Of a stretch of DNA of 6,166 nucleotides, positions 1-6,166 are shown one piece after another (the stretch's first letter is position 1; every line of letters starts with the position of its first letter). The stretch is from IMG/VR virus record IMGVR_UViG_2609459801_000011; one strand, 5' to 3'. Source of the DNA: a virus (taxonomy: Duplodnaviria > Heunggongvirae > Uroviricota > Caudoviricetes). The position numbers were made by a program, and so were the translations under genes. The notes under the pieces are model-generated. The model had not been told where the DNA came from. It ran no database searches and saw only the letters and a program-made list of their open reading frames with translations.

Positions 1-72
1 CATTTCCGCGCAGACGATGACGTCACTGCCCGGCTGTATGCGCGAGGTTACCGACTGCGGCCTGAGTTTTTT
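1..72 (-). CDS. insB: IS1 InsB (InsAB' transposase) N-terminal portion, partial; continues past the window start
   Basis: The reverse complement of 1-47 translates in the -1 frame relative to insA to ...[11 protein letters not shown], matching the start of the InsB frame. The A6C frameshift motif lies at 66-72. The 5' limit is approximate. Confidence 0.65.
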
Positions 73-323
73 AAGTGACGTAAAATCGTGTTGAGGCCAA
101 CGCCCATAATGCGGGCAGTTGCCCGGCATCCAACGCCATTCATGGCCATATCAATGATTTTCTGATGCGTACCGGGTTGAGAAGCGGTGTAAGTGAACTG
201 TAGCTGCCATGTTTTACGGCAGTGAGAGCAGAGATAGCGCTGATGTCCGGCAGTACTTTTACCGTTACGCACCACGCCTTCAGTAGCTGAACAGGAGGGA
301 CAGCTGATAGAAACAGAAGCCAC
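48..323 (-). CDS. insA: IS1 InsA, transposition inhibitor / DNA-binding protein (91 aa, GTG start)
   Basis: Full-length ORF in the six-frame track; the translation is near-identical to InsA as I recall it, including the Cys-rich zinc-finger-like N-terminus CPSC...CSHC and the C-terminal LKNSGRSR. Confidence 0.9.
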
Positions 324-378
324 TGGAGCACCTCAAAAACACCATCATACACTAAATCAGTAAGTTGGCACCATTACC

Positions 379-846
379 CTAGTGAACTTGCAAAACTGGA
401 AAAGCTAAAGAATCAGTATTCAAAGGAAGAATATAATAATCTTATCGCTCAAATAAATGAGCGTTATAAAGATCCAAAGCAACCAAAGGCGAAAGGTTAT
501 TCTGATGATGCAGCCCAACGAATGATTGATCATCTGAATCAACAGAATGCGTTACTAAGTTCACAAGCTGAGTTGACCGTTAAATTAAGTTCCTCTGAAC
601 AGGAACTGGTTAAGTGGCGTCAGCGGATTGCCGACCTAGAGTCACGACCATCATCGAAATTAACCCAGGATCAGAAATCGCTTCTCTTACACCGGGAAGA
701 AATAACCGCGTTGATGGAGAAAAATGTTGCGATTGAAAAGAATAACAGGCTAATCAAGGAATCCGCCGAAATAACAGCATGGCGTGATTCATTGCAGGCT
801 TCGATTGATAATCGTCAGCAGGGGTATGATATTCAGATTGCTGGTT
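379..846 (+). pseudogene. Internal fragment of a tail tape measure protein (lambda H-like), truncated at its 5' end by IS1 and joined at its 3' end to an I-gene remnant in another frame
   Basis: The reading frame is open from the first base after IS1 (379) to the stop at 941 (six-frame ORF 522-941 is its Met-started portion). The translation is coiled-coil-like (..SQAELTVKLSSSEQELVKWRQRIADLESR..LTQDQKSLLLHREEITALMEKN..) and resembles the central heptad region of lambda H (LQAELRTLEK...LSAQEKSLLAHKDETLEYKRQ) as recalled from memory. There is no start codon or RBS at the 5' end. Confidence 0.45.
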
Positions 847-1107
847 ATCCTGTTTTCTCTCGGTGCCAGTATGGTGCTCGGTGGTGTGGCGCAGATGCTG
901 GCACCGAAAGCCAGGACGCCCACGGCAGCAAGTACAGATAACGGCAAACAGAACACCTATTTTTCTTCACTGGATAATATGGTTGCCCAGGGCAATGTCC
1001 TGCCCGTTCTGTACGGTGAAATGCGTGTGGGGTCGCGCGTGGTTTCTCAGGAGATCAGCACGGCAGACGAAGGGGACGGTGGTCAGGTTGTGGTGATTGG
1101 TCGCTGA
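847..1107 (+). pseudogene. Tail assembly protein I, C-terminal remnant (about 85 codons, lacks the N-terminal two thirds)
   Basis: Frame-1 translation ILFSLGASMVLGGVAQMLAPKARTP...TDNGKQNTYFSSLDNMVAQGNVLPVLYGEMRVGSRVVSQEISTADEGDGGQVVVIGR* matches the C-terminus of lambda gpI. The upstream sequence is unrelated and in a different frame. The Mets at 784 and 826 are probably fortuitous. Confidence 0.75.
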
Positions 1108-1125
1108 TGCAAAATGTTTTATGTG

Positions 1126-1153
1126 AAACCGCCTCAGGGCGGTTTTGTCGTTT
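1126..1153 (+). terminator. Stem-loop between the I remnant and the J start (possible weak intrinsic terminator or RNA stability element)
   Basis: Perfect 8-bp inverted repeat AAACCGCC (1126-1133) / GGCGGTTT (1138-1145) with a 4-nt loop TCAG, followed by the T-rich but interrupted TGTCGTTT. Confidence 0.35.
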
Positions 1154-1167
1154 ATGGAGCGTGAGGA

Positions 1168-2979
1168 ATGGGTAAAGGCAGCAGTAAGGGGCATACCCCG
1201 CGCGAAGCGAAGGACAACCTGAAGTCCACGCAGCTGCTGAGTGTGATCGATGCCATCAGCGAAGGGCCGGTTGAAGGTCCGGTGGATGGATTAAAAAGCG
1301 TGCTGCTGAACAGTACACCGGTGCTGGACACTGAGGGGAATACCAACATCTCCGGTGTCACGGTGGTGTTCCGTGCCGGTGAGCAGGAGCAGACACCGCC
1401 GGAGGGGTTTGAATCCTCCGGCTCCGAGACGGTGCTGGGTACGGAAGTGAAATATGACACGCCGATCACCCGCACCATTACGTCTGCAAACATCGACCGT
1501 CTGCGCTTTACCTTCGGTGTACAGGCACTGGTGGAAACCACCTCAAAGGGTGACAGGAATCCGTCGGAAGTCCGTCTGCTGGTTCAGATACAACGTAACG
1601 GTGGCTGGGTGACGGAAAAAGACATCACCATTAAGGGCAAAACCACCTCGCAGTATCTGGCCTCGGTGGTGGTGGGTAACCTGCCGCCGCGCCCGTTCAA
1701 TATCCGGATGCGCAGGATGACGCCGGACAGCACCACAGACCAGCTGCAGAACAAAACGCTCTGGTCGTCATACACCGAAATCATCGATGTGAAACAGTGC
1801 TACCCGAACACGGCACTGGTCGGCGTGCAGGTGGATTCGGAGCAGTTCGGCAGCCAGCAGGTGAGCCGTAATTATCATCTGCGCGGGCGCATTCTGCAGG
1901 TGCCGTCGAACTATAACCCGCAGACGCGGCAATACAGCGGTATCTGGGACGGAACGTTTAAGCCAGCATACAGCAACAACATGGCCTGGTGTCTGTGGGA
2001 TATGCTGACCCATCCGCGCTACGGCATGGGGAAACGTCTTGGTGCGGCGGATGTGGACAAATGGGCGCTGTATGTCATCGGCCAGCATTGCGATCAGTCG
2101 GTGCCGGACGGTTTTGGCGGCACGGAGCCGCGCATCACCTGTAATGCGTACCTGACCACACAGCGCAAGGCGTGGGATGTGCTCAGTGATTTCTGCTCTG
2201 CGATGCGCTGTATGCCGGTATGGAACGGGCAGACGCTGACGTTCGTGCAGGACCGACCGTCGGATAAGGTGTGGACCTATAACCGCAGTAATGTGGTGAT
2301 GCCGGATGATGGTGCGCCGTTCCGCTACAGCTTCAGCGCCCTGAAGGACCGCCATAATGCCGTTGAGGTGAACTGGATTGACCCGAATAACGGCTGGGAG
2401 ACGGCGACAGAGCTTGTGGAGGACACGCAGGCCATTGCCCGTTACGGTCGTAACGTCACGAAGATGGATGCTTTTGGCTGTACCAGCCGGGGGCAGGCAC
2501 ACCGCGCCGGGCTGTGGCTGATTAAAACAGAACTGCTGGAAACGCAGACCGTGGACTTCAGCGTGGGTGCCGAAGGGCTTCGCCATGTACCGGGCGATGT
2601 CATTGAAATCTGCGATGATGACTATGCCGGTACCCGCTGGCATGAAGATTCCGTGCGTAACCGCTGGTTCAGCGTAATGGCGGGGCCGTCTGTGCGCGTG
2701 AATGAATGGTTCAGCGCGTATGCGATGGCGGGTGTGGCTTACAGCCGTGTGTCGACTTTCTCCGGGGATTATCTCCGCGTAATTGACAACAAGGGGAAAA
2801 CGCACGACGTGCTGACCGGAAGTGATGACGGTCGCCACAGCAACACGTCTCTGGCGTGGGGAGCTGGCGTGCAGTTTAACCCGACCGAATCCGTGGCCAT
2901 TGATATTGCTTATGAAGGCTCCGGCAGTGGTGACTGGCGCACTGACGGTTTCATCGTGGGTGTCGGTTATAAATTCTGA
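1168..2979 (+). CDS. Chimeric ORF: tail tip / host specificity protein J N-terminal ~488 aa fused in frame to the C-terminal ~115 aa of a Lom/Ail-family outer-membrane beta-barrel protein; probably a deletion-derived pseudogene
   Basis: AGGA 7-10 nt upstream of the ATG at 1168. The N-terminus MGKGSSKGHTPREAKDNLKSTQLLSVIDAISEGP... matches lambda J through ...EICDDDYAG (codon ending about 2631). From 2632 the translation switches to Lom-like sequence ending ...VAIDIAYEGSGSGDWRTDGFIVGVGYKF*, the characteristic Lom C-terminus. Lambda J is about 1130 aa, so roughly 640 J codons and the lom 5' half are missing. Confidence 0.85.
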   Translation: MGKGSSKGHTPREAKDNLKSTQLLSVIDAISEGPVEGPVDGLKSVLLNSTPVLDTEGNTNISGVTVVFRAGEQEQTPPEGFESSGSETVLGTEVKYDTPITRTITSANIDRLRFTFGVQALVETTSKGDRNPSEVRLLVQIQRNGGWVTEKDITIKGKTTSQYLASVVVGNLPPRPFNIRMRRMTPDSTTDQLQNKTLWSSYTEIIDVKQCYPNTALVGVQVDSEQFGSQQVSRNYHLRGRILQVPSNYNPQTRQYSGIWDGTFKPAYSNNMAWCLWDMLTHPRYGMGKRLGAADVDKWALYVIGQHCDQSVPDGFGGTEPRITCNAYLTTQRKAWDVLSDFCSAMRCMPVWNGQTLTFVQDRPSDKVWTYNRSNVVMPDDGAPFRYSFSALKDRHNAVEVNWIDPNNGWETATELVEDTQAIARYGRNVTKMDAFGCTSRGQAHRAGLWLIKTELLETQTVDFSVGAEGLRHVPGDVIEICDDDYAGTRWHEDSVRNRWFSVMAGPSVRVNEWFSAYAMAGVAYSRVSTFSGDYLRVIDNKGKTHDVLTGSDDGRHSNTSLAWGAGVQFNPTESVAIDIAYEGSGSGDWRTDGFIVGVGYKF

Positions 2980-3005
2980 TTAGCCAGGTAACACAGTGTT
3001 ATGAC

Positions 3006-3032
3006 AGCCCGCCGGTTCAGGCGGGCTTTTTT
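3006..3032 (+). terminator. Rho-independent terminator downstream of the J-lom chimera
   Basis: GC-rich 8-bp stem AGCCCGCC (3006-3013) / GGCGGGCT (3020-3027), 6-nt loop GGTTCA, then a run of six T (3027-3032). Confidence 0.7.
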
Positions 3033-3043
3033 GTGGGGTGAAT

Positions 3044-5923
3044 ATGGCAGTAAAGATTTCAGGTGTACTGAAAGACGGCACAGGAAAACCGGTACAGAAC
3101 TGCACAATCCAGCTGAAAGCAAAACGTAACAGCACCACGGTGGTGGTGAACACGCTGGCCTCAGAAAATCCGGATGAAGCCGGGCGTTACAGCATGGACG
3201 TTGAGTACGGTCAGTACAGCGTTATTCTGTTGGTGGAAGGATTCCCGCCGTCACATGCCGGGACCATCACCGTGTATGAAGATTCTCAACCCGGTACGCT
3301 GAATGATTTTCTCGGTGCCATGACGGAGGATGATGCCCGTCCGGAGGCACTGCGTCGTTTTGAACTGATGGTGGAAGAGGTGGCGCGTAACGCGTCCGTG
3401 GTGGCACAGAACACGGCAGCCGCAAAGAAGTCAGCCAGTGATGCCAGCACATCTGCCAGTGAGGCGGCAACCCGTGCGACTGATGCTGCAGATTCAGCAC
3501 GTGCAGCCAGCACGTCAGCCGGACAGGCCGCGTCGTCGGCTCAGTCAGCGACTTCCAGCGCAGGAACGGCATTAACAAAGGCCACTGAAGCATCAAAAAG
3601 TGCTGCCGCTGCAGAGTCCTCAAAAAGCGCGGCAGCTACCAGTGCCAGTGCCGCGAAAACGTCAGAAACGAATGCTGCAGCGTCACAACAATCAGCAGCC
3701 ACTTCTGCATCCACCGCGACTACGAAAGCGTCAGAAGCTGCCACCTCAGCCCGGGATGCGGCGGCTTCAAAAGAGGCGGCAAAATCATCAGAAACGAACG
3801 CATCCTCGAGCGCCAGTAGCGCAGCTTCCTCGGCAACAGCGGCAGGAAATTCCGCGAAGGCGGCAAAAACGTCCGAGACGAACGCTAAGTCTTCTGAAAC
3901 AGCAGCGGGACAGAGCGCCTCAGCTGCGGCAGGTTCAAAAACAGCGGCTGCGTCGTCTGCCAGTGCTGCGTCAACAAGTGCCGGGCAGGCCTCAGCCAGT
4001 GCCACCGCTGCCGGAAAATCGGCAGAAAGCGCCGCATCATCCGCTTCAACAGCCACAACGAAGGCTGGCGAAGCCACTGAGCAAGCCACTGCAGCAGCGA
4101 GGTCTGCTTCTGCAGCAAAAACCTCTGAAACAAATGCAAAGACTTCAGCAGACAATGCTGCTTCCTCTAAGGCGGCAGCCGCATCGTCCGCTGGTTCAGC
4201 GGCGTCATCGGCATCATCTGCGTCTGCTTCAAAAGATGAGGCGACCAGACAAGCGTCAGCAGCGAAAGGTAGTGCCACGACAGCAACAACGAAAGCATCA
4301 GAGGCGGCAGGCAGTGCGACGGCTGCATCTCAGAGCAAAGTTGCTGCTGAATCCGCGGCAACGCGTGCCGAAACAGCGGCAAAACGGGCAGAGGATATTG
4401 CTGATGCCGTATCTCTGGAAGATGCGAGTACGACGAAAAAAGGTGTGGTTCAGCTCAGTAGCGCCACTAACAGCCCGTCTGAAACGCTGGCTGCGACACC
4501 AAAAGCGGTTAAGGCGGTAATGGATGAAACGAACAAGAAAGCGCCCTTAAATAGTCCTGCACTGACCGGAACGCCAACAACGCCAACTGCGCCAAAAGGT
4601 ACTAATAATACTCAGATCGCAAGTACGGCTTATGTGATGGCCGCGATTGCCGCCCTTGTAGACTCGTCGCCTGACGCACTGAATACGCTGAACGAGTTAG
4701 CGGCGGCGCTGGGCAACGACCCGAATTTTGCGACCACCATGACTAACGCGCTTGCGGGTAAGCAACCGAAAGATGCCACCCTGACGGCGCTGGCCGGGCT
4801 TGCTACTGCGGCAGACAGGTTTCCGTATTTTACGGGGAATGATGTCGCCAGCCTGGCAACCCTGACAAAAGTCGGGCGGGATATTCTTGCGAAATCGACC
4901 GTTGCTGCCGTTATCGAATACCTCGGTTTACAGGAAACGGTAAACAGGGCCAGGAACGCCGTGCAAAAGAATGGCGATACCTTGTCCGGTGGGCTTACTT
5001 TTGAAAACGACTCAATCCTTGCCTGGATTAGAAATACTGACTGGGCAAAGATTGGTTTTAAAAATAATGCCGACAGCGACACTGATTCATACATGTGGTT
5101 TGAAACAGGCGACAACGGCAATGAATATTTCAAATGGAGAAGCCGCCAGAGCACCACAACAAAAGACCTGATGACTCTTAAATGGGATGCTTTGTCTGTC
5201 CTTGTTAAAGCCCTTTTCAGCAGTGAAGTAAAAATATCGACAGTCAATGCACTGAGGATATTTAATTCATCTTTTGGTGCTATTTTTCGTCGTTCTGAAG
5301 AATGCCTGCATATCATCCCTACACGAGAGAATGAGGGAGAAAATGGTGATATAGGGCCACTACGCCCCTTTACGCTTAATCTCAGAACTGGTCGGATAAG
5401 CATGGGGCATGGTCTTGATGTTACAGGGGATATATTTGCAAACCGTTTTGCAATTAACAGTAGTACCGGCATGTGGATTCATATGCGTGACCAGAATGTT
5501 ATTTTGGGACGCAATGCGGTATCCACCGATGGTGCGCAGGCATTACTTCGTCAGGACCACGCTGATCGCAAATTTATGATTGGTGGACTGGGGAATAAGC
5601 AATTTGGCATCTACATGATTAATAACTCAAGGACAGCCAATGGCACCGATGGTCAGGCGTACATGGACAACAATGGCAACTGGCTTTGCGGTGCGCAAGT
5701 TATTCCCGGCAATTATGGTAATTTTGACTCACGTTATGTGAGAGATGTCCGACTTGGTACACGTGTTGTTCAGACTATGCAAAAAGGCGTGATGTATGAG
5801 AAATCAGGTCATGCAATTACGGGGCTTGGCATTATCGGTGCAGTTGATGGCGATGATCCGGCAGTATTCAGACCAATACAAAAATACATCAATGGCACAT
5901 GGTATAACGTCGTACAGGTGTAA
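3044..5923 (+). CDS. stf: Side tail fibre protein Stf, apparently intact (959 aa from ATG 3044): lambda-like N-terminus, Ala/Ser/Thr-rich repeat shaft, different C-terminal receptor-binding-type domain
   Basis: MAVKISGVLKDGTGKPVQNCTIQLKAKRNSTTVVVN... matches the lambda Stf N-terminus as recalled. One uninterrupted ORF ends at TAA 5921-5923. The C-terminal part carries the GDTLSGGLTF motif common in tail fibre distal domains. GGGGTG lies upstream of the ATG. The six-frame track starts the ORF at GTG 3038, but ATG 3044 gives the conserved N-terminus. Confidence 0.9.
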   Translation: MAVKISGVLKDGTGKPVQNCTIQLKAKRNSTTVVVNTLASENPDEAGRYSMDVEYGQYSVILLVEGFPPSHAGTITVYEDSQPGTLNDFLGAMTEDDARPEALRRFELMVEEVARNASVVAQNTAAAKKSASDASTSASEAATRATDAADSARAASTSAGQAASSAQSATSSAGTALTKATEASKSAAAAESSKSAAATSASAAKTSETNAAASQQSAATSASTATTKASEAATSARDAAASKEAAKSSETNASSSASSAASSATAAGNSAKAAKTSETNAKSSETAAGQSASAAAGSKTAAASSASAASTSAGQASASATAAGKSAESAASSASTATTKAGEATEQATAAARSASAAKTSETNAKTSADNAASSKAAAASSAGSAASSASSASASKDEATRQASAAKGSATTATTKASEAAGSATAASQSKVAAESAATRAETAAKRAEDIADAVSLEDASTTKKGVVQLSSATNSPSETLAATPKAVKAVMDETNKKAPLNSPALTGTPTTPTAPKGTNNTQIASTAYVMAAIAALVDSSPDALNTLNELAAALGNDPNFATTMTNALAGKQPKDATLTALAGLATAADRFPYFTGNDVASLATLTKVGRDILAKSTVAAVIEYLGLQETVNRARNAVQKNGDTLSGGLTFENDSILAWIRNTDWAKIGFKNNADSDTDSYMWFETGDNGNEYFKWRSRQSTTTKDLMTLKWDALSVLVKALFSSEVKISTVNALRIFNSSFGAIFRRSEECLHIIPTRENEGENGDIGPLRPFTLNLRTGRISMGHGLDVTGDIFANRFAINSSTGMWIHMRDQNVILGRNAVSTDGAQALLRQDHADRKFMIGGLGNKQFGIYMINNSRTANGTDGQAYMDNNGNWLCGAQVIPGNYGNFDSRYVRDVRLGTRVVQTMQKGVMYEKSGHAITGLGIIGAVDGDDPAVFRPIQKYINGTWYNVVQV
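3400..4400. repeat. Intragenic imperfect repeats encoding the Ala/Ser/Thr-rich shaft of Stf
   Basis: Recurrent peptide motifs with matching nucleotide repeats: AAKTSETNA-like units at about 3649, 3775, 3860 and 4112; TATTKASEAA at about 3721 and 4270; AASTSAGQA at about 3505 and 3960. Codons are dominated by GCN/TCN/ACN. Confidence 0.7.
4911..4936. other. Candidate 26-bp DNA-invertase crossover site (gix/cix/hix-like) inside stf at the constant/variable junction
   Basis: TTATCGAATACCTCGGTTTACAGGAA differs at about 2 of 26 positions from the phage Mu gix site as I recall it (TTATCCAAAACCTCGGTTTACAGGAA) and keeps the conserved ACC-TC-GGTTT centre. It encodes ..VIEYLGLQE.., the point where similarity to lambda Stf ends. 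Confidence 0.55.
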
Positions 5924-5926
5924 TTT

Positions 5927-6166
5927 ATGCAGCATTTAAAAAATATTAAGTCTGGAAATCCAAAAACAAAAGAACAATATCAGCTAACAAAGAATTTTGA
6001 TGTTATCTGGTTATGGTCCGAAGACGGAAAAAACTGGTATGAGGAAGTGAAAAACTTTCAGCCAGACACAATAAAGATTGTTTACGATGCAAATAATATT
6101 ATTGTCGCCATCACCAAAGATGCCTCCACGCTTAACCCTGAAGGTTATAGCGTCGTTGAGGTTCCA
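5927..6166 (+). CDS. tfa: Tail fibre assembly protein Tfa, N-terminal 80 codons (partial, continues beyond the window end)
   Basis: ATG at 5927 lies 3 nt after the stf stop, with AGGTG 6-11 nt upstream. The frame is open to the window end ([41 protein letters not shown]...). Position directly after stf and resemblance to TfaR/TfaQ/TfaE-type proteins, from memory. Confidence 0.8.

Follow-up and report, generated by a model that had tools for sequence, protein, structure and literature searches.

The stretch of DNA analyzed here (6,166 bp, referred to as the window) corresponds to one complete draft contig of E. coli 3-073-06_S4_C3. It starts in a partial IS1 copy and continues with remnants of two phage tail genes, an open reading frame (ORF) composed of parts of J and lom, and the tail fiber genes stf and tfa (Table 1). 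J encodes the tail-tip (host specificity) protein, known in lambda as the tip attachment protein, and lom an eight-stranded outer-membrane β-barrel of the Ail/Lom/OmpX type. The window was compared with the MB10 prophage (NZ_CP073988.1; gpJ WP_257204657.1, Ail/Lom WP_001619152.1), whose positions are given as L002. The product of the IS1 frame at 48-323 matches Zn_ribbon_InsA and HTH_Tnp_IS1, and the homology to the MB10 tape-measure gene begins exactly at position 379. The tape-measure fragment matches Pfam TMP_4 (E = 1.1e-25), and the corresponding MB10 stretch lies within a coding sequence annotated as ‘phage tail tape measure protein’; the I remnant corresponds to the end of a ‘tail assembly protein’ coding sequence. 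The stf product contains phage_tail_N (Pfam, E = 8e-72) and Gp34_trimer domains, and the tfa piece corresponds to the MB10 coding sequence L002 14372-14899 (minus strand), annotated as ‘tail fiber assembly protein.’

Table 1. Features of the window (positions 1 to 6,166; a dot marks features without strand).
Feature	Start	End	Strand	Remarks
Partial IS1 copy	1	378	-	insA at 48-323; lies in the tape-measure gene; ends at contig end
Tape-measure gene, internal fragment	379	848	+	100% identical to MB10 L002 3001-3470
Second private deletion junction, tape-measure gene to I	846	848	.	TAT common to both parents
Tail assembly gene I, 3' remnant	847	1107	+	colinear with MB10 L002 6436-6696 and lambda I
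Hairpin with T-rich tail, I-J spacer	1121	1151	+	-15.2 kcal/mol, z = -2.9
Shine-Dalgarno GGAG	1156	1159	+	8 nt before the ATG at 1168; read from the sequence
Chimeric ORF J(1-488)::Lom(85-199)	1168	2979	+	603 aa; from the open-reading-frame list, BLASTP and Pfam
J' part, J codons 1-488	1168	2631	+	FNIII-A and Phage-tail_3 domains only
Deletion junction	2628	2637	.	imperfect 10-bp repeat; crossover within TA at 2631-2632
'lom part, Lom codons 85-199 and stop	2632	2979	+	without signal peptide and strands 1-3
Intrinsic-terminator-like hairpin and T run, downstream of lom	3006	3033	+	-18.6 kcal/mol, z = -2.9
Side tail fiber gene (stf), intact	3038	5923	+	961 aa; 3' end on the invertible segment
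Tail fiber assembly gene (tfa), 5' part	5927	6166	+	ends at contig end

All four blocks of the window are 99.8-100% identical to the MB10 prophage, and both share the gene order tape measure, I, J, lom, stf, tfa. The MB10 prophage is of the Rac type, as ydaY lies upstream, and the window is a near-identical, colinear match to part of the tail region of such a prophage (ydaY, tape measure ... J, lom, stf, tfa, invertible segment). MB10 encodes a full J of 1,160 aa and a full Lom of 199 aa, and its M, L, K, and I genes are present. Unlike MB10, the window lacks two stretches of 2,337 bp and 2,967 bp and carries the IS1 copy, and its stf/tfa invertible segment has the other orientation. Positions 2628-4948 are colinear with MB10, while positions 4951-6166 match the opposite MB10 strand at 100%.

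The ORF at 1168-2979 is an in-frame fusion of the J N-terminus to the Lom C-terminus, as the earlier note had read it from the letters and as BLASTP, Pfam, and the base-level comparison with MB10 now bear out. Its residues 1-488 align without gaps to residues 1-488 of lambda J (484/488 identities; 99% identity to the J of PDB 8iyk and others) with ...EICDDDYAG as the last matched residues, and this part has three mismatches to MB10 J. Residues 491-603 share 56% identity with residues 94-206 of lambda Lom (E = 4e-39; PDB 9wso, chain C). The lambda proteins used for BLASTP were taken from J02459. The lom-derived DNA (2631-2979) follows MB10 lom without a single mismatch, the identity starting at L002 10558. 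The Lom allele of the window is of the Rac/MB10 type and not of the lambda type. According to Pfam, the ORF contains FNIII-A_GpJ (PF24801) at 86-207 (E = 3e-41), Phage-tail_3 (PF13550) at 330-489 (profile positions 1-155 of 164), and Ail_Lom at 485-603 (profile positions 81-199 of 199) with 234 bits against a cut-off of 23. The tail of 115 residues (489-603) is Lom-like by both the lambda alignment and the Ail_Lom profile. PDB entry 9wso was also considered as a J-Lom complex, which was rejected because the entry has no J chain.

Base-level comparison with the intact MB10 prophage places the breakpoint exactly where the earlier note had put it approximately, at codon 488 around position 2631. 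The J-specific sequence ends at 2630 and the lom-specific sequence starts at 2633, with the TA at 2631-2632 common to both parents. Compared with MB10, the window has lost exactly 2,337 bp (3 x 779): J codons 489-1160 (about 58% of J), lom codons 1-84 (42%), and the 66 bp that separate the two genes. The proposal of a single deletion across the 3' part of J and the 5' part of lom is borne out by the comparison with this 99.8%-identical intact prophage, while the size of roughly 2 kb given for it needs correction to 2,337 bp. J and lom share one reading phase, and the number of bases lost is a multiple of three, resulting in a single ORF of 603 aa. The microhomology sought at the breakpoint consists of the TA inside an imperfect 10-bp repeat, CGGTATCCGC in J and CGATACCCGC in lom, which reads CGGTACCCGC in the window (8/10 match). 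An 8/10 match overlapping the junction is expected for 0.29% of random J x lom pairings (chance 0.0029); the perfect microhomology is only 2 bp, and at least 2 bp are expected by chance in 16%. One illegitimate recombination event between these two imperfect repeats, with a crossover in the common TA, would have connected codon 488 of J with codon 85 of lom at the loss of the intervening DNA. Judging from the imperfect repeat, this was presumably a short-homology deletion, probably RecA-independent, by replication slippage or end joining. As an observation, the J-Lom fusion is a deterministic fact of the sequence with no statistical signal attached, the kept frame (prior 1/3) being the sole chance element.

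Beyond residue 498, intact J contains two Ig-like domains (Ig_J and Ig_J_second), the tail-tip fiber domain (Phage_Tail_Tip), and the receptor-binding domain (Ig_GpJ_C), which in MB10 J are located at 610-1160. Pfam found none of these four domains in the window ORF, so the J receptor-binding C-terminus is lost, in line with the earlier prediction. By its sequence, the ORF is a fragment of a member of the TipJ/lambda gpJ family and not a functional member. The predicted loss of the Lom signal peptide was also correct: intact MB10 Lom starts with MRKLYAAILSAAICLAVSGAPAWA-SEHQ (a Sec signal peptide), while the ORF enters Lom at residue 85, after 488 J residues. Lom T85 aligns to OmpX A52, at a Lom-specific insertion between the blocks of strand 3 and strand 4. 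By the strand numbering and topology of OmpX (1QJ8), the break would fall in the loop between strands 3 and 4. About three of the eight barrel strands are gone and about five are kept according to this alignment and the OmpX topology, against the earlier statement that most β-strands were lost. The strands were counted from the OmpX alignment and not from an AlphaFold2 model, as the model of full-length Lom (P0038, 20-sequence alignment) had a mean pLDDT of 33.8 and was unusable for this purpose. The C-terminal aromatic β-signal is kept, the ORF ending in ...DGFIVGVGYKF as in both lambda and MB10 Lom. The predicted product would thus consist of the J FNIII-A and Phage-tail_3 (hub) domains followed by a signal-less Lom fragment with about five of the eight strands. 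This fragment could be neither exported nor closed into a barrel, which would make the ORF a chimeric pseudogene. Judging from this domain content, the fused gene is almost certainly dead.

The ORF retains expression signals, as the earlier note had pointed out: the ribosome-binding site, the intact frame, and the terminator are all present (Table 1). The Shine-Dalgarno region is the native J translation start region and is colinear with lambda. The hairpin downstream (3006-3027) has eight pairs, seven of them G-C, followed by TTTTTT; it is native to the lom-stf spacer and homologous to lambda. The hairpin in the I-J spacer, which was not flagged by a consensus terminator scan, is native to lambdoid phages and could stop transcripts that are not antiterminated. 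A promoter scan returned five promoter-like sites with 5.0 expected from shuffles, i.e., no excess. Provided that transcription reaches the ORF, a protein could be produced.

In lambda, J and lom are separate genes of 1,132 and 206 codons, respectively. The homology to lambda also covers the 3' end of lom, the spacer, the terminator, and the 5' end of stf (87%). The earlier note had suggested Rac of K-12, with its disrupted lomR, as the equivalent locus, but the case is not equivalent. Both belong to the same prophage family: at K-12 Rac ynaA (tmpR)/lomR (b1368, b4570), lom is also truncated at its 5' end by an internal deletion, stfR-tfaR are kept downstream as in the window, and the right breakpoints are only 51 bp apart. 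However, the K-12 deletion is a different one: it spans 8,457 bp (MB10 L002 2051-10507), starts in the tape-measure gene instead of J, and is out of frame, leaving no J sequence at K-12 Rac. In addition, K-12 lomR is split by an IS5Y. A third arrangement, J - lom' - 'J - lom, is found in E. coli S42. It was considered as the reciprocal duplication of the same crossover and rejected, since its joint connects lom (MB10 10664) to J (MB10 7673) at other positions.

Decay is also visible elsewhere in the window. The second deletion removed 2,967 bp, and the frames of the tape-measure gene and I do not match across it, making it out of frame; none of 5,426 complete E. coli genomes has its junction. 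The tail operon upstream of the chimera is thus broken by both IS1 and this deletion, from which it follows that the tail module was already dead or died simultaneously. Read in this way, the window is the product of multi-step prophage decay with two deletions and an IS1 insertion. Very probably, it represents a remnant of a Rac-type lambdoid prophage in the E. coli 3-073-06_S4 lineage, in which one deletion created the chimeric pseudogene as one step of this decay. Resolved to the base, the chimera illustrates the erosion of cryptic lambdoid prophages by IS insertion and short-homology deletions. Such deletions create chimeric ORFs as part of ordinary prophage decay, and this one is of little importance in itself.

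The J' and 'lom-stf parts might instead have different origins, joined by recombination between two different lambdoid phages, resident or incoming. Lambdoid prophages recombine often, and the two J 3' copies of S42 differ in their identity to MB10 (95.5% vs 97.2%). Yet, both sides of the junction match one and the same MB10 prophage at 99.8%, and for the tape-measure fragment as well as the inverted stf/tfa segment the match to this prophage is 100%. Moreover, J and lom are not homologous, and homologous exchange between phages would not yield a joint of this kind. We consider an origin from two phages very improbable compared to a deletion within one prophage.

The same junction was found in one sibling isolate, S4_C1, with only two synonymous differences in 1,922 bp, and the exact chimeric protein occurs on these two contigs only. 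The assemblies of S4_C1 and S4_C3 are GCA_000700485.1 and GCA_000704965.1. The J488/Lom85 junction is absent from the 5,426 complete E. coli genomes and from all phage records searched. Scans for the exact 24-mer junction in species-representative genomes and metagenome contigs gave zero hits, which shows rarity only. At least ten other J'::'Lom chimeras were found, all with other breakpoints and none with the J488/Lom85 joint; P0008 (J56::Lom83), P0016 (J220::Lom51), and P0053 (J776::Lom70) are examples from E. coli. These deletion-derived ORFs have the same parents, fused in frame and in the same order, and occupy the same place in decayed lambdoid prophages, with I upstream and stf or host genes downstream. 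At least some of them are located in different prophages, such as a DLP12-like one (L009) adjoining appY-ompT-envY-nfrA, and two J fusions checked in their context were both in other decayed prophages. Fusions of the Lom C-terminus to pieces of other genes also occur (I, L, U, Z, tail tube, portal, terminase, and lysozyme). As the survey worked on proteins and started from the Lom C-terminus, fusions of this type are all it can find. A hotspot at Lom residue 85 was considered and rejected, as the other chimeras enter Lom at points spread over residues 12 to 118. Judging from these sequences, this kind of fusion is common, while the individual junction is restricted to a lineage.

The recurrence of such fusions also bears on an assembly artefact, in which the contig would join J and lom of different prophages and no such molecule would exist in the cell. 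The window is a short-read draft contig ending in repeats (IS1 at the left, tfa at the right), sequences resembling parts of the window occur at a median of 13 places per E. coli genome, making for a repeat-rich assembly graph, and both assemblies come from colonies of one sample and probably from one pipeline. However, the homology between the parents at the joint (two perfect bases, or 8/10) is far below any assembler k-mer, and no graph path would therefore lead to the chimera. Two independent assemblies contain the junction, on contigs that differ in their ends (1,922 and 6,166 bp), and its in-register short homology is a signature of real illegitimate recombination. Finally, many analogous fusions are present in complete long-read genomes, with P0008 on a 4.7-Mb contig. 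We consider an artefact very improbable.

Equally hard to credit is the idea that the chimera is expressed and selected for a new role of the cytoplasmic Lom C-terminus or the J N-terminus, or that deletions ending in lom are favored for preserving a useful lom-3'/stf/tfa/pin module. The retained expression signals would fit, as would the many Lom fusions in E. coli and the independent loss of DNA in K-12 Rac up to 51 bp from the same lom breakpoint. A preprint describes activity of a signal-less C-terminal fragment of K-12 LomR in a heterologous vibriophage assay, in which lambda Lom without its signal sequence and OmpX were likewise active (10.1101/2021.11.15.468771). On the other hand, only two sibling isolates carry the junction and the frame would be kept by chance in 1/3 of cases, the other two deletions compared (window 846-848, K-12 ynaA/lomR) being out of frame. 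The promoter-like sites do not exceed the shuffle expectation, the Lom start points show no hotspot, and a survey seeded with the Lom C-terminus finds only such fusions. Carrying the LomR-B3 activity over to the chimera is weakened as well, as the A-P-D residues essential in K-12 LomR-B3 are encoded by the IS5 end, in an IS5-derived leader, and are absent in the window. It is thus hardly probable that the chimera is made and its signal-less Lom domain is active in or released from the cell or, more broadly, that deletions ending in lom are kept as useful.

A dead gene left by prophage decay, the preferred reading, also affects how database entries of this type are read. The chimera has been deposited as KDU23939.1 and KDZ76933.1 under the name ‘enterobacterial Ail/Lom family protein,’ a misleading label for a product of 603 aa, four-fifths of which come from J. 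Other J'::'Lom chimeras are also labelled ‘Ail/Lom family’ in databases. Such chimeras pollute protein clusters, the present one being located inside a J cluster of 16,895 members.

The window is identical, as checked, to the whole draft contig JNRZ01000112.1 (assembly GCA_000704965.1) of E. coli 3-073-06_S4_C3. Its chimeric ORF continues in frame from the tail protein J into Lom. Residues 1-488 align without gaps to lambda J 1-488 (484/488 identities, ending in EICDDDYAG), while residues 491-603 match lambda Lom 94-206 with 56% identity (E = 4e-39; both by BLASTP against the J02459 proteins). The Pfam assignments agree, and both the J-to-Lom fusion and the Lom-like nature of the C-terminus, as proposed in the earlier note, are thus borne out. 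The evidence supports the fusion as genuine and the interpretation given in that note, with minor corrections. A deletion produced this chimeric pseudogene, which is confined to a single E. coli lineage and lies within a Rac-type prophage that has been damaged several times. Its GenBank name, ‘enterobacterial Ail/Lom family protein’, is a misnomer; the corresponding 90%-identity cluster contains 16,895 proteins, mostly partial J.

Features of the window, the chimera, the MB10 reference and other J-Lom fusions (L002, tail region of the MB10 prophage; P handles, proteins from the collection search; Jn/Lomm, last J and first Lom residue)
Sequence	Feature	Coordinates	Details
Window	Partial IS1	1-378	minus strand; insA 48-323, Pfam Zn_ribbon_InsA + HTH_Tnp_IS1
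Window	Tail tape-measure gene, internal fragment	379-848	
Window	Tail assembly gene I, 3' end	847-1107	
Window	Chimeric ORF	1168-2979	603 aa
Window	Terminator-like hairpin	3006-3027	
Window	Side tail fibre gene (stf), intact	3038-5923	961 aa
Window	Tail fibre assembly gene (tfa), start	5927 to contig end	
Chimera	FNIII-A_GpJ	86-207	Pfam
Chimera	Phage-tail_3	330-489	Pfam, cut at profile position 155/164
Chimera	Ail_Lom	485-603	Pfam, profile positions 81-199 of 199
Window/L002	Tape-measure gene	379-848 / 3001-3470	100%
Window/L002	I 3' end + J 5' part	846-2637 / 6435-8226	99.8%
Window/L002	lom 3' part + stf	2628-4948 / 10554-12875	99.8%
Window/L002	stf 3' end + tfa	4951-6166 / 15875-14660	100%, opposite strand
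MB10 J	FNIII-A_GpJ	86-207	Pfam
MB10 J	Phage-tail_3	330-498	Pfam
MB10 J	Ig_J	610-714	Pfam
MB10 J	Ig_J_second	716-818	Pfam
MB10 J	Phage_Tail_Tip	872-1000	Pfam
MB10 J	Ig_GpJ_C (receptor-binding)	1037-1160	Pfam
P0008	Fusion	J56/Lom83	
P0026	Fusion	J62/Lom74	
P0054, P0070, P0075	Fusion	J212/Lom35	
P0016	Fusion	J220/Lom51	
P0020	Fusion	J256/Lom56	
P0004	Fusion	J484/Lom118	
P0030	Fusion	J646/Lom17	
P0064	Fusion	J766/Lom28	
P0053	Fusion	J776/Lom70	
P0092, P0113	Fusion	J ~822 / Lom51 and Lom99	

The partial IS1 copy, within which the contig ends, interrupts the tape-measure gene at about codon 629 (MB10 gene numbering). A long repetitive Ala/Ser/Thr-rich stretch of stf (window 3400-4400) gives rise to several spurious long ORFs in either orientation, e.g., 3541-4278 (-) and 3600-4520 (+), and the original GenBank gene calls break stf into pieces.

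The nearest complete genome is that of E. coli MB10 (NZ_CP073988.1), whose prophage is an intact Rac-type prophage since it has a full tail module with ydaY upstream. The window was aligned to this locus in four blocks. Between J and lom it lacks 2,337 bp, in keeping with the single deletion of roughly 2 kb suggested before, and the breakpoint lies where it had been placed (about codon 488, nt about 2631). The joint reads GCCGGTATCCGCACC in the parent J, AGCGATACCCGCTGG in the parent lom and GCCGGTACCCGCTGG in the window: base 2630 is the last J-specific base, both parents have TA at 2631-2632, and lom-specific sequence begins with base 2633. Because the codon phase is equal in both parents (J GGT|ATC, lom GAT|ACC) and 2,337 equals 3 x 779, the frame runs on from J codon 488 (Gly) into Lom codon 85 (Thr). 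Compared with MB10, the Lom-derived DNA (2631-2979) is free of mismatches, and three occur in the J-derived DNA. Among random J x lom joints, 16% would be expected to show perfect microhomology of at least 2 bp, and only 0.29% an in-register 8-of-10 match that overlaps the joint; this homology fits short-homology illegitimate recombination, which we infer as the mechanism. A second deletion joins the tape-measure gene to gene I at a common TAT (window 846-848) with the loss of 2,967 bp; it is out of frame, so that the tape-measure frame continues to a stop at 941. Among three deletions compared at the DNA level, the frame is preserved in one and lost in two, matching the neutral expectation.

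It is highly improbable that the J/lom joint is an assembly artefact: the parents share no k-mer-length sequence there, leaving no assembler path to the chimera, and the sibling isolate 3-073-06_S4_C1, from the same sample but separately assembled, has the same joint on a 1,922-bp contig that corresponds to window 1086-3007 (two differences, both at third codon positions). The contiguous junction is missing from all 5,426 complete E. coli genomes; J matches in these genomes end at window 2632 and Lom matches begin at 2628-2631. Nor was it found in phage records, and an exact 24-mer spanning it had no match in species-representative genomes or metagenome contigs. The exact chimeric protein occurs in two contigs only. 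The tape-measure/I junction is equally private (0 of the 5,426 genomes). Both deletions are recent and confined to the 3-073-06_S4 lineage.

Intact MB10 J is 1,160 aa long, and the chimera retains only FNIII-A_GpJ and Phage-tail_3 of its six Pfam domains. As anticipated earlier, the receptor-binding C-terminus of J is lost, and so is the Lom signal peptide, which is a typical one in intact Lom (199 aa; MRKLYAAILSAAICLAVSGAPAWA), the chimera joining Lom at residue 85. Lom T85 aligns with OmpX A52 (2m06, 1qj8), where an insertion specific to Lom, flanked by two conserved strand blocks, ends; we take this entry point to be extracellular loop 2 of OmpX, which links strands 3 and 4. Most β-strands had been presumed lost, but by the OmpX alignment the Lom part would keep about five of eight (an AlphaFold2 model with pLDDT 33.8 was set aside). 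Lacking the signal peptide and lying behind 488 cytoplasmic residues, this part is predicted to be neither exported to the outer membrane nor able to form a closed barrel. Likewise, the J part would be unable to build a tail tip, being without the C-terminal 672 residues, the tape measure, M, L, and K. A lambda Lom chain has been solved (PDB 9wso).

Expression of the chimera appears possible but is unsupported. The RBS, unbroken frame and terminator claimed for it are all there, namely the Shine-Dalgarno GGAG (1156-1159) of J and the terminator of lom, both native, the latter being a hairpin followed by a T run (-18.6 kcal/mol). Promoter-like sites show no excess (5 vs 5.0 in shuffled sequence), the I-J spacer contains a hairpin (-15.2 kcal/mol) with a T-rich tail, and the operon upstream is broken by IS1 and the tape-measure/I deletion. 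Lambda J is transcribed from a distant late promoter under Q antitermination. That the chimera is both expressed and useful is very unlikely. Signal-less Lom fragments have been reported as active, since a VP882 vibriophage reporter in E. coli was induced by a signal-less 3' fragment of K-12 lomR, and also by lambda Lom without signal sequence and by OmpX (Bassler laboratory preprint, 10.1101/2021.11.15.468771). However, the essential residues of the K-12 fragment (‘LomR-B3’ activity) are A7-P8-D9 (10.1101/2021.11.15.468771), and the sole A-P-D upstream of the Lom-derived part in K-12 belongs to a leader (MAHDVPLGCAPDEYDD...) that is encoded in the IS5Y end rather than in lom. This leader is missing from the window ORF, which makes the precedent weak. 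The chimera is a further instance of a type of prophage decay that is common and well understood.

K-12 Rac lomR, which the earlier note offered as the equivalent locus, is not equivalent and results from a different deletion. In K-12 MG1655 (L003, 2455-4985), the tape-measure fragment ynaA directly joins lomR, L002 2051-10507 (8,457 bp) is missing, and the lom breakpoint (10508) lies 51 bp upstream of that of the window (10559). The joint in K-12 does not keep the reading frame, and IS5Y additionally splits lomR. Decay of the two Rac remnants was independent.

Other Lom fusions were retrieved from a collection of 5.8 billion proteins using a query of 100 aa of J and 115 aa of Lom, and mapped to MB10 J and Lom. 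The Lom C-terminus has further fusion partners, among them fragments of I, L, U, Z, tail tube, portal, terminase and lysozyme. The gene for P0008 is flanked by I and stf and belongs to a decayed prophage on a 4.7-Mb contig, and that for P0016 is found between I and appY-ompT-envY-nfrA in a DLP12-like remnant. Lom residue 85 was rejected as a hotspot because entry points in the other fusions are scattered over residues 12-118. Seeded with the Lom C-terminus and limited to continuous ORFs, the survey is biased and silent on selection for in-frame joints. In the locus with the J56::Lom83 fusion (L007, 12720-14619), a gene pair of an RVT_1 reverse transcriptase and SLATT_5 just downstream of stf is probably anti-phage defence cargo. 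In E. coli S42 (NZ_CP010236.1; L006, 2186-9359), J is followed by a 5' piece of lom, a 3' piece of J and then lom, with lom joined at MB10 position 10664 to J at MB10 position 7673. Although this resembles a duplication, the J 3' copies are not alike (95.5% vs 97.2% identity to MB10), and recombination between two phages is the likelier origin.

The stf 3' end and tfa are on an invertible segment, flipped relative to MB10 with a boundary at about window 4949. A candidate gix/pix-like crossover site, TTATCGAATACCTCGGTTTACAGGAA, is located at window 4910-4935 and presumably resembles Mu gix.
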